Positions 55,801 to 58,800 of a stretch of 64,000 nt of DNA are shown here, piece after piece (position 1 is the first letter of the stretch; each line of letters starts with the position of its first letter). The position numbers were made by a program. Location: NCBI RefSeq assembly GCF_056712565.1, contig NZ_CM160072.1. The stretch is one strand, 5' to 3'.

Positions 55801-58800
55801 GACGCACTGAACAGGGCAAAACAACAGGCGGGTAACGACGATCCGTACGGGGACGGGATACCGTTTTAATTCACAACAGCGAACAGAGTAATTACAGGGG
55901 AAGGCATGACAAAGCTGACCATAAACAGAAAACCGAAGGGCATTTACGGCACGCCGCAGAAAACAGCACAGGCGGCGCAGCAGCAGAATAAAACCACATC
56001 GGCGCATAAAGTGATGCCAGATAACCAGAACACACAGCAGAAGCTCACAGGAGCAACACCGCGGCGGCGTATGACCAAACAGCAGCGTAAAAACCGCAGA
56101 CGCGTTAACCGTCTTATTGAGCTATGGCCTGAATTATTCAGCCCGGAATCACCTAAGCCGCTTAAGGTGGGGATATTTGACGACCTGATACAGGATATTG
56201 CCGCGAGAGGTATTTCACTCGGACAGGGAACACTACGCGCAACGCTGGCGCGTTATGTGCAGACTCCGCGCTATTACCGCGCCCTGGTAGCTGGTGGCGC
56301 GCGTTACGACCTGAAAGGCCAGCCGTGCGGCGAGGTAACACCACTACAACAGACGCACGCAGGAAAACTACTGGAGGAGATGAATGGAAATAGTAAGAAA
56401 TGATCACGCACATGGTCGCCGTGCAGGTGATCACATTGTGGATGAAATGGCGGAAAAACAAAGAGTTGACATTATTGTCAGTGTCACAGTCGAGAGCGCG
56501 AAGCGCCAAAATAAGCGTATAAATGATCGTTCAGATGTACATGGTGTGATCACTCGTTTACGCCAGACTTTTGTAACTCGTGAAGAGATGATTGAAGCTA
56601 TTGACCAGCATACAGCATGTATCAGCGTCAGGGATATACCGGAGGTCATTGCTAACTACTTCATGATCACCAGACGCCTTTACCGGAGAAAAGACAAGAG
56701 CACGGTTAACCGTCTCCTGATGTCTGATATTCGCGAATACCTGCAAGAAAGGGGCTATGTGAATCCACCAGAACAGCGCTACGGAAGAGTCGGAGGCTAA
56801 CTAAAACCCTGTACCGAAGAGCGGCGGCGCGATGGGGTGAAGTAATGCAGTTGGGAAACTGATAAGGAACGGTATTACATATCAATGCGACGACTGGAAT
56901 GTTCCAGGAAGGCACAGAGGCCACCGAAGCAACCGGATAATTTAGAAGACCTGAAACGGTCGCTTAAACGCACTGAAAAAGAAATGGGGATAGATGGGAT
57001 CGGGAAATCAGTATGGCGTAACTACCAGAAGTAAGCACAGAGCCGGAGCAATCCGGCTTTTTTTGGGGCTGAAATCAATCAATCTGTTTTTGTGATAGAA
57101 ATATGTTTATCTACCACTTTTTCAGATCAATAATGTGCATAGTTTAGTCAGTAAGAGGAAATTGCTGTGAATTGTATTAACGACCTGAACACAGGCGATG
57201 TCAGAGGTGGTTCCGTTCATCTGGATGCACAGACCGTGATGCGCATTAAGCAGTACAGAATCGACCATGTGAACAATCACCCTGATCAGCCATTACCAGG
57301 CGTGGCGCAGATTGTCAGACATGCCGTAAACGCCTGGCTTAATCAGAATGGTTTTGCATCGGGGGGTGAGTAATGAATCGCTGGTACAGCATCAAAGCAG
57401 AGGGACGCCAATGTTATCTAACTCAGGTTTTATGAATTCTGACTCCCGATTCAAAATAGGAGGTTACTAATGCCAGTCGTACCAACAGTATCCGGACGTC
57501 AGGTTGAGAGCCGTGGAGTTCAGTCAGCAGGCTTGCAGACGTTTTCTCAGCCAGGTATTAGTGATGCTTTTGTTCGTGCAGGAGCAGAGGCAATTGATGT
57601 TCTGGGTCAGGCAAAACAGCGTGCCAATATTGCCTTGGTTCAGGAGGCATCCCTTAAACTCAGTCAGACAGGCAGTGATCTGCTGAATAATCCTGAAACA
57701 GGATTGCTTAACCTGAAAGGGAAAAATGCTATTGGAAAAGGCCATGAGTATACGCAGCAGTTTGATGCTCAGGTCGAACAACTGGCTATGTCGCTGCCGG
57801 ATGAACAGGCCCGTAATGCTTTCATGCAGCAGGCACAGCAGCAGCGCATTCAGTTCACTACGCAGGCCGGGCGGTACGAGATCGGGCAAATAAATGCCTA
57901 CGAAGAAGGCCAGTTTCAGGCTACGCTGCTGAACAATGGTAAAAATGCCGCAGCATTGTATGGCGACAACGCCGCATACGTATTGGCTAATAAGCAAACT
58001 TTCCAGCAAATTGAGGAGTACGGCATTGCGCATGGCTGGAGCGACGAGCAGATTCGGGCCAGGAAAATCGAGTTTAAAGAAGCAACAGCAAAAGCAACTG
58101 CTCAAAATGCTATTGGAGCAAACTATCTTCAGGTAAGACAGCAAAACGGCGAGTTAAGCGATACTGCTGCTGGAGCTCGCCGTGCTGTAGCAGATAGTGG
58201 ATCTTCCGATCGTACCCGCGGTATACGCAACAATAACCCCGGCAATCTTGAATACAGCAAAACTAATCCGTGGGTTGGGCAGACTGGTGATGATGGTCGC
58301 TTTGCTAAATTCGAAACACCTGAACACGGTATTCGTGCATTAGGGCGGAACCTGATGTCGTATCAGCGGCAGGGTATTGATACCGTCAGCGAGATAATTA
58401 ATCGCTGGGCACCGCCTACTGATAAAAATGACACTATGTCGTATATCAAAGCAGTGTGCGAACAACTTGGCGTTTCTGCTGATGATCCTATAGATGCATC
58501 TAATCCGGATACCCTGAAGGCGCTTTGTGCAGCCATTATCCATCATGAAAACGGTAGCCAGCCATACAGTGATCAGCAGTTAACTGCAGGTGTTAGTGCT
58601 GCGCTGGGGCTTTCTCAGCTACCGACAAAAAATAAACGTTATACCGGTGTAGCCTGGTTCGATGCTTTAAGTGAATCGGATCAGGCCAGCGTGTTGCGAC
58701 AGACTGATGCACTAGCCAGACAACAGCAGGCTGAATATAAAACGATGCTCGACAGCCAGGTTCGCGATGCGACAGCTGCGTATATGCGTGGCGTTGAATT

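Follow-up and report, generated by a model that had tools for sequence, protein, structure and literature searches.

A FinO/ProQ-family gene in the replication module of an Escherichia coli phage-inducible chromosomal island

The stretch of DNA analysed here (the window: 64,000 nucleotides of contig NZ_CM160072.1, RefSeq assembly GCF_056712565.1) is Escherichia coli chromosome and carries an island which, by its gene content, is a Gram-negative phage-inducible chromosomal island (PICI). The replication module of this island contains a gene that is, by sequence and by predicted fold, a real and intact member of the FinO/ProQ family of RNA chaperones. It encodes a protein of 165 amino acids (aa) and lies 520 nt from an iteron origin, directly after the gene for a single-stranded DNA-binding protein (SSB). 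With moderate confidence, we favour the view that the product is an accessory, FinO-domain RNA chaperone of the PICI, which would bind a ligand from the island or its helper phage and thereby tune gene expression during the induced cycle; we go no further than moderate confidence because the search for the ligand was negative.

The open reading frame (ORF) begins at an ATG with a strong Shine-Dalgarno (SD) sequence, GGGGAAGG, a few bases 5′ of it. A start at M56 was rejected: the SD spacing would be poor there, and purifying selection acts on residues 1-55, which are conserved. The protein matches the Pfam ProQ/FinO family PF04352 over residues 64-162 (model positions 5-102 of 109; E=1.6e-23, 83.2 bits), and a sequence search of the PDB returned above the noise only FinO-domain proteins, namely the N-terminal domain (NTD) of ProQ (5nb9, 2e-14), FinO (1dvo, 4e-11) and also Lpp1663 (6s10), NMB1681 (3mw6) and RocC (7rgt/7rgu). 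An AlphaFold2 model built from a 65-sequence alignment has a mean predicted local distance difference test score (pLDDT) of 80.5; residues 61-160 all score above 90 and residues 1-55 form a low-confidence coil. The helices (58-73, 90-101, 107-118, 121-129 and 146-164) and strands (132-134 and 140-143) of the model make up a mostly alpha-helical FinO fold with a beta-hairpin. In a Foldseek comparison with the PDB, the 26 best matches were all FinO-domain structures (E 2.7e-7 to 9e-5), the next match having E=4, and the significant neighbours were FinO, which ranked first, NMB1681, RocC and Lpp1663. The preliminary description of this DNA, made from the sequence alone, had noted a resemblance to the FinO/ProQ signature in the central region of the protein, and both the family and PDB matches and the predicted structure bear this out far beyond chance.

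The family annotation is already present in RefSeq, where the product is named 'ProQ/FINO family protein', and the gene is an uncharacterised member of a known family. By the curated models of NCBI the protein is neither ProQ nor FinO proper, since it scores 57.5 bits against the ProQ equivalog NF003434 (cutoff 127) and 55.7 bits against the FinO subfamily NF010317 (cutoff 136). The architecture is FinO-like: a disordered, Q/K/T-rich segment (residues 1-55) leads into a basic helix (58-73; RKNRRRVNRL...) and the FinO domain (about 64-162), and the chain ends just past that domain with neither a linker nor a Tudor-like C-terminal domain (CTD) of the ProQ type.

The residues through which FinO domains contact RNA are largely retained. 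In a phmmer alignment K87, G89, R111, Y123 and R133 correspond to K35, G37, R58, Y70 and R80 of ProQ, and the last four are also the equivalents of G52, R75, Y87 and R97 of RocC. The crystal structure of RocC with RocR shows a pocket of Tyr87 and Arg97 that buries the 3′-terminal nucleotide of the RNA, an adjacent beta-turn stabilised by Gly52, and Arg75 on a helix N-cap that reads the hairpin backbone; the substitutions R97M and R75D each lower binding more than 100-fold (PMC9674577). This 3′-nucleotide pocket (Tyr, Arg and beta-turn Gly) is conserved in the island protein. Alignment A1 comprises 65 homologues that are 25-78% identical to the query. None of them departs from Y123 or R133, 59 keep G89, and position 111, an arginine here, is R or K in 47. 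Pairwise ratios of non-synonymous to synonymous substitution (dN/dS) against nine homologues range from 0.10 to 0.43, in the N-terminal region and the FinO domain alike, and the gene is therefore under purifying selection.

Several E. coli chromosomes match the 5-kb surroundings of the gene with 100% identity. In strain M21170 the island occupies about 20 kb between yicC and dinD. Its left part runs int, a hypothetical gene, an AlpA-type helix-turn-helix (HTH) gene (Pfam E=6.9e-6), Rha, AntA/B, Bro-N and two small leftward genes, one of them of the YlcI/YnfO family; its right part runs Icd-like, a hypothetical gene, DUF4222, the DUF927 primase, SSB, the FinO-like gene, a 138-aa ORF, a frameshifted PerC gene, a terminator and three virion genes. 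The features that mark a PICI are all present (integrase, AlpA, a primase-replication gene and an iteron origin round an AT-rich core), and the annotated part has no lysis or tail genes. The order also matches that of the model PICI EcCICFT073, from int through YlcI/YnfO to Icd-like, DUF4222, primase, SSB and PerC. Between yicC and dinD, a search for att sites found only a 12-mer repeat, which is not convincing, and the PADLOC defence models matched neither the FinO-like gene nor its neighbours. Coordinates of the main features are collected in Table 1.

Table 1. Features of the island within the window, in order of position.
Feature	Coordinates	Strand	Remarks
PICI	46864..64000	+	integrase gene to window end; in M21170 about 2.8 kb more, up to dinD
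Probable early rightward promoter	52180..52260	+	TTGACA at 52219, three GTGCGCACA palindromes overlapping it; read from sequence
DUF4222 gene	52811-53113		end overlapped by primase start
DUF927 primase/replication initiator, 708 aa	53110..55236	+	phrog_1139, 2e-174
Putative PICI origin	55260..55384	.	2 inverted and 4 direct TAACCCGCA iterons; AT-rich core about 55280-55319, 27.5% GC
SSB gene	55447..55869	+	phrog_44, 1e-39; ends 36 nt 5′ of FinO-like gene
FinO/ProQ-domain gene, 165 aa	55906..56403	+	ATG 55906, stop 56401-56403; RefSeq WP_021543045.1
138-aa ORF	56384..56800	+	strong SD GGAGGAG; start overlaps FinO-like gene end by 20 nt
PerC-family pseudogene	56809..57034	+	frameshifted (RefSeq); only C-terminal half left as ORF 56885-57034
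Intrinsic terminator	57040..57066	+	GCCGGAGCAATCCGGC then T7; folding z=-2.45

The window has six exact copies of TAACCCGCA (0.49 expected; six reached in 0 of 100 shuffles), all of them in the 210-nt gap between the primase and ssb genes, and published PICI origins have the same design of iterons plus an AT-rich core (PMC6092414). The preliminary description had correctly placed the gene right after ori and ssb, and the helper-dependent satellite that it implied is supported by the PICI layout; it had also taken the position as a sign of RNA-mediated control of replication or of helper or host transcripts, and as regards replication the evidence does not follow it. Such control would have the protein aid an antisense RNA or a leader stem-loop that represses the initiator (the primase) and so limits replication from the adjacent origin, in the style of FopA with Inc/repZ or PcnR with repR. 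The closeness of the gene to the origin fits this idea, its ori-proximal place is kept across three unrelated primase types and different iterons, and FinO-domain proteins of plasmids do set copy number. Set against this, the start of the primase gene overlaps the DUF4222 gene, which leaves an antisense RNA without a leader to act on, and Rfam, promoter/terminator and folding scans turned up nothing convincing, either as an antisense promoter-terminator pair or as a structured RNA. EcCICFT073 (L010; E. coli CFT073 1377930-1388654) has the same layout with no FinO-domain gene between SSB and PerC, and its cloned rep gene and ori sufficed for plasmid maintenance (PMC6092414). Members of the subfamily are also found in islands whose fetched flanks (3.5-7 kb per side) contain no primase or SSB. 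We consider replication control of this kind improbable, and the protein would have no obligatory part in replication initiation.

The probable early promoter separates the leftward YlcI/YnfO-family gene from the Icd-like gene, which points rightward and is the first of the operon; with its palindromes this promoter is probably the early operator/promoter switch of the island. Promoter and terminator scans, together with a scan for hairpins followed by T-runs, found no canonical plus-strand terminator between about 52236 and 57040, which makes it plausible that the FinO-like gene is, most likely, co-transcribed with the Icd-like, DUF4222, primase and ssb genes. The intrinsic terminator after perC is the probable end of this rightward operon and a candidate RNA ligand. 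A second intrinsic terminator, on the minus strand at 51606-51586 (GGCGACC...GGTCGCC then TTTGTTTT), closes the short leftward YlcI/YnfO operon; since the early region of the island has only two canonical terminators, this one is likewise a candidate FinO-domain ligand.

Relatives of the protein are common in enterobacterial chromosomes. A protein search among 5.8 billion sequences gave 267 matches, mostly in chromosomes of E. coli, Shigella, Salmonella and Citrobacter, and an exhaustive search of representatives gave 1929 members at E<=1e-3 with only five at E<=1e-30, so that this is a compact subfamily inside a large family. Nucleotide homologues are present in 1077 of 5426 complete E. coli genomes, all of them chromosomal and at up to nine places per genome; 422 of these genomes have a place that covers at least 80% of the gene, and 45 genomes have one that covers at least 80% of the 5-kb query module. 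Phage genomes hold distant relatives only, for example Sodalis phiSG1 at 45%.

Ten other loci with 46-83% identity, drawn from E. coli, Salmonella, Citrobacter and metagenomes, share a common arrangement: primase, iteron origin, then SSB, another small gene or nothing (nothing in L002 and L015), then ProQ, followed by PerC or a gene at the PerC position (unnamed in L016). The primases of these loci have three architectures (DUF927; D5_N/DUF5906; Zn-ribbon/Toprim/DUF927), related islands carry iterons of their own after the primase gene (for example TAACCCGT, GGTAGACAGTT and TGAACCAAC), and the stop and start codons of adjacent genes mostly overlap or abut. This conserved primase-ori-ProQ-PerC module appears to support an accessory role in PICIs. 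Since EcCICFT073 has the same backbone without the gene, the FinO-like gene is an optional cassette of the PICI replication module. On one metagenomic contig (L008) two FinO-domain genes, of 161 and 157 aa, stand in tandem at 3592-4631.

A second genomic context is found in four E. coli chromosomal loci (L011, L012, L013 and L019), where copies about 75% identical in nucleotides within the FinO domain reside in pathogenicity island (PAI)/CP4-like islands. These copies face a convergent hypothetical gene (about 180 aa), lie near HTH, zinc-ribbon and YagK/YfjJ genes, and are often frameshifted or truncated; primase, SSB and PerC are all absent from the fetched flanks. Partial matches of this PAI/CP4-like type probably account for most of the approximately 650 genomes in which coverage of the gene by the best match is below 80%.

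Taken with what is known of related systems, these observations suggest how the gene might work. In model PICIs, AlpA switches on the island genes after helper induction (PMC6092414), and the operon described here would be activated in the same way, with the FinO-like gene transcribed together with the replication genes from the early rightward promoter at 52219. Its translation would be coupled to that of the next ORF (138 aa) because of the SD sequence and the 20-nt overlap between the two. In the manner established for the family, the protein would hold a stem-loop that has a free 3′ tail, of the intrinsic-terminator type, in the pocket formed by G89, Y123 and R133, with R111 acting at the helix N-cap, and the basic N-terminal helix would help to shield the bound RNA from 3′ decay and/or to anneal it to a partner. 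The RNA in question would be a transcript of the island or of the helper phage, and through it the protein would adjust island or helper gene expression. All the plasmid-borne FinO-domain proteins studied (FinO, FopA and PcnR) act on RNAs of the element that carries them or of a co-resident one (PMC9977716, PMC8053102).

Candidates for the RNA partner were sought in several ways. An antisense RNA inside the 5′ part of the gene was rejected, as this region is the least conserved in nucleotides and many matches cover only positions 150-448, and no minus-strand promoter-terminator pair stood out in promoter and terminator scans of a simple kind. The operon terminator was ruled out as a ProQ-specific ligand by an identical hairpin that follows perC in EcCICFT073, where there is no FinO gene. 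This last result is one of several that weigh against the chaperone role proposed above. In a permissive Rfam search of 44000-64000 the sole match, to CRISPR-DR10 at E=1, was a chance one, and no C4/isrK immunity RNA appeared; folding gave z scores of -0.6 for the operon leader, -0.9 for the leftward 3′ region and -1.8 for the post-stop hairpin, no better than shuffles; and the proQ/perC junctions of nine loci give a consensus of -4.1 kcal/mol with a covariation penalty and hence no conserved structure. In all, Rfam, terminator and folding scans found no antisense or structured RNA partner for the protein. The N-cap residue departs slightly, being Gly106 as opposed to Ser in ProQ and RocC (S70 in RocC), and in alignment A1 this position is G in 28 of 65 sequences, S in 14 and T in 8; the details of RNA binding may therefore differ from those of ProQ and RocC. 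The window protein also departs from its relatives at about residue 146 and stops at 165, with the loss of the basic C-terminal tail, and the subfamily occurs outside PICIs, so that its role need not be satellite-specific.

The relatives are 174-180 aa long and carry a basic tail (...AETRLMALNEKRKRQRRAA...), and nucleotide matches to them stop at position 460-481 of the 498 in the query. From these alignments, the 3′ end of the FinO-like gene has been replaced here and the window copy is a derived variant. The 138-aa ORF, for which Pfam gave no domain and PHROG a weak Ant-like match, stands where perC begins in related islands, and what is left of PerC matches positions 41-88 of the 90 in PF06069 (E=4e-14). 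A 13-bp interrupted hairpin (TGATCACGCAC...GTGCAGGTGATCA) extends from the stop codon of the FinO-like gene at 56402-56434, inside the 138-aa ORF and with no plus-strand T-run after it; it may mark the recombination junction. Such damage to the module (perC frameshifted, a foreign ORF inserted and the 3′ end of the gene replaced) might be expected if the gene were a passenger, or decaying, with no current function here, carried in an ssb-proQ-perC block that recombines as a unit. The frequent frameshifts and truncations of the PAI-type copies and the dispensability of the gene in at least one working PICI, EcCICFT073, point the same way. The ORF is nonetheless intact and preceded by a strong SD sequence, the module recurs in the 45 genomes mentioned above, the dN/dS values are low, and the residues of the RNA pocket are invariant across 65 diverse homologues; we regard a functionless passenger as very improbable.

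It is also conceivable, if unlikely, that the protein acts in trans on helper-phage or host RNAs, such as phage antisense RNAs or the terminator-bearing small RNAs (sRNAs) held by ProQ, as a competitor of or substitute for the host ProQ, and that it re-programmes helper development or host physiology so that the satellite benefits. The FinO domain shares about 40% identity with the NTD of E. coli ProQ, its best match among solved structures, and the ProQ regulon takes in sRNAs and mRNAs of prophages and genomic islands (PMC9977716). The gene is accompanied by PerC-family regulators, proteins that work in trans on loci elsewhere (PMC11773190), and the islands that carry it differ in their late regions, for which reason the target may be a generic one. 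What speaks against this reading is the missing linker and C-terminal Tudor-like domain, together with a score below the cutoff of the ProQ equivalog model. A bolder version would make the protein part of a distinct and widespread class of FinO-domain chaperones, recruited by phage satellites, that bind helper or host RNAs of the ProQ class in trans on induction and steer helper development or the host sRNA network. We think this improbable as well; if true, an RNA chaperone protein would for the first time be seen to mediate a conflict between satellite and helper.

Among bacterial RNA chaperones, those with a FinO domain form the third major class. The characterised copies from mobile elements, FinO, FopA and PcnR, all control the spread or copy number of the element itself. 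A pair of proQ-like and PerC genes was tabulated in 2010 for ROD34, a small prophage-like region of enteroaggregative E. coli (EAEC) 042 (PMC2808357), a FinO-domain/ProQ-like protein is mentioned for Vibrio episomal satellites in the 2026 literature, and papers on PICIs discuss PerC (PMC6092414, PMC11773190). In targeted searches of the literature, no functional work on a FinO-domain protein from a PICI or other island came up. The gene described here belongs to a separate subfamily that is found in PICI replication modules and other E. coli islands, with nucleotide homologues in about 20% of complete E. coli genomes. Were the accessory chaperone to have a dedicated RNA partner, a post-transcriptional layer would be added to satellite-helper biology, and many E. 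coli strains would hold extra ProQ-like proteins able to disturb ProQ-dependent regulation. The FinO-like gene is in this respect a reasonable lead for RNA biologists, not a surprising one.

The late region of the island (57470-64000, continuing in L001 to 32318) encodes three full-length podovirus internal-virion or ejection proteins of 843, 686 and 918 aa (phrog_992, 1145 and 684). The first shares 80% identity, along its entire length, with the 'putative lytic transglycosylase' of Salmonella phage epsilon15 and 67% with phiV10, which suggests that the helper of the island is epsilon15/phiV10-like; ejection proteins of the satellite's own would possibly replace virion components of the helper. 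In the flanking chromosome, pyrE and rph are separated by an IS200C transposase gene at 44331-44789 (RefSeq annotation of an identical strain).

Among characterised proteins, FinO of the F-like plasmids (1dvo) is the best structural match (Foldseek E=2.7e-7, root-mean-square deviation 2.0 Å over 102 columns) and shares with the island protein a FinO domain that follows a basic N-terminal extension or helix, the lack of a C-terminal Tudor domain, and a gene borne on a mobile element. The two are only 29% identical, however, and the island protein falls short of the NCBIfam FinO cutoff; the island, moreover, is a phage satellite and not a conjugative plasmid, with no annotated tra operon or conjugation genes, FinP or traJ. 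The ProQ NTD (5nb9) is the closest solved relative in sequence and keeps the equivalents of all five RNA-contact residues listed above, whereas the island protein has a disordered N-terminus of 55 residues, no linker or Tudor-like CTD, and G106-Q107-G108 in place of the N-cap S53-K54-T55 of ProQ. FopA (IncI pCol1B9) and PcnR (IncI2) are likewise small FinO-domain proteins of mobile replicons, and theirs is an action on replication-control RNAs (PMC9977716, PMC8053102); the likeness to them is a functional analogy, Rfam, terminator and folding scans of the island revealed neither an Inc-like antisense RNA nor a Rep leader stem-loop, and the initiator here is a primase-helicase acting on iterons. 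RocC and Lpp1663 from Legionella and NMB1681 from Neisseria have the same fold (Foldseek target-normalised TM 0.60-0.85) and keep the pocket residues for the terminator 3′ end, but they are 23-32% identical and are chromosomal regulators with known sRNA partners.

As to the element itself, the Gram-negative PICIs EcCICFT073, EcCIEDL933 and EcCIMP1 have int, AlpA, Icd-like, DUF4222, primase, iteron ori, SSB and PerC, running rightward, with captured phage late genes last (PMC6092414, PMC11773190), as does the island described here. The words ProQ and FinO are absent from the EcCIMP1 paper. Unlike EcCICFT073, the island has a FinO-domain gene between SSB and PerC, and unlike the Gram-negative PICIs compared, it has a late region made up of three epsilon15-like internal virion genes.

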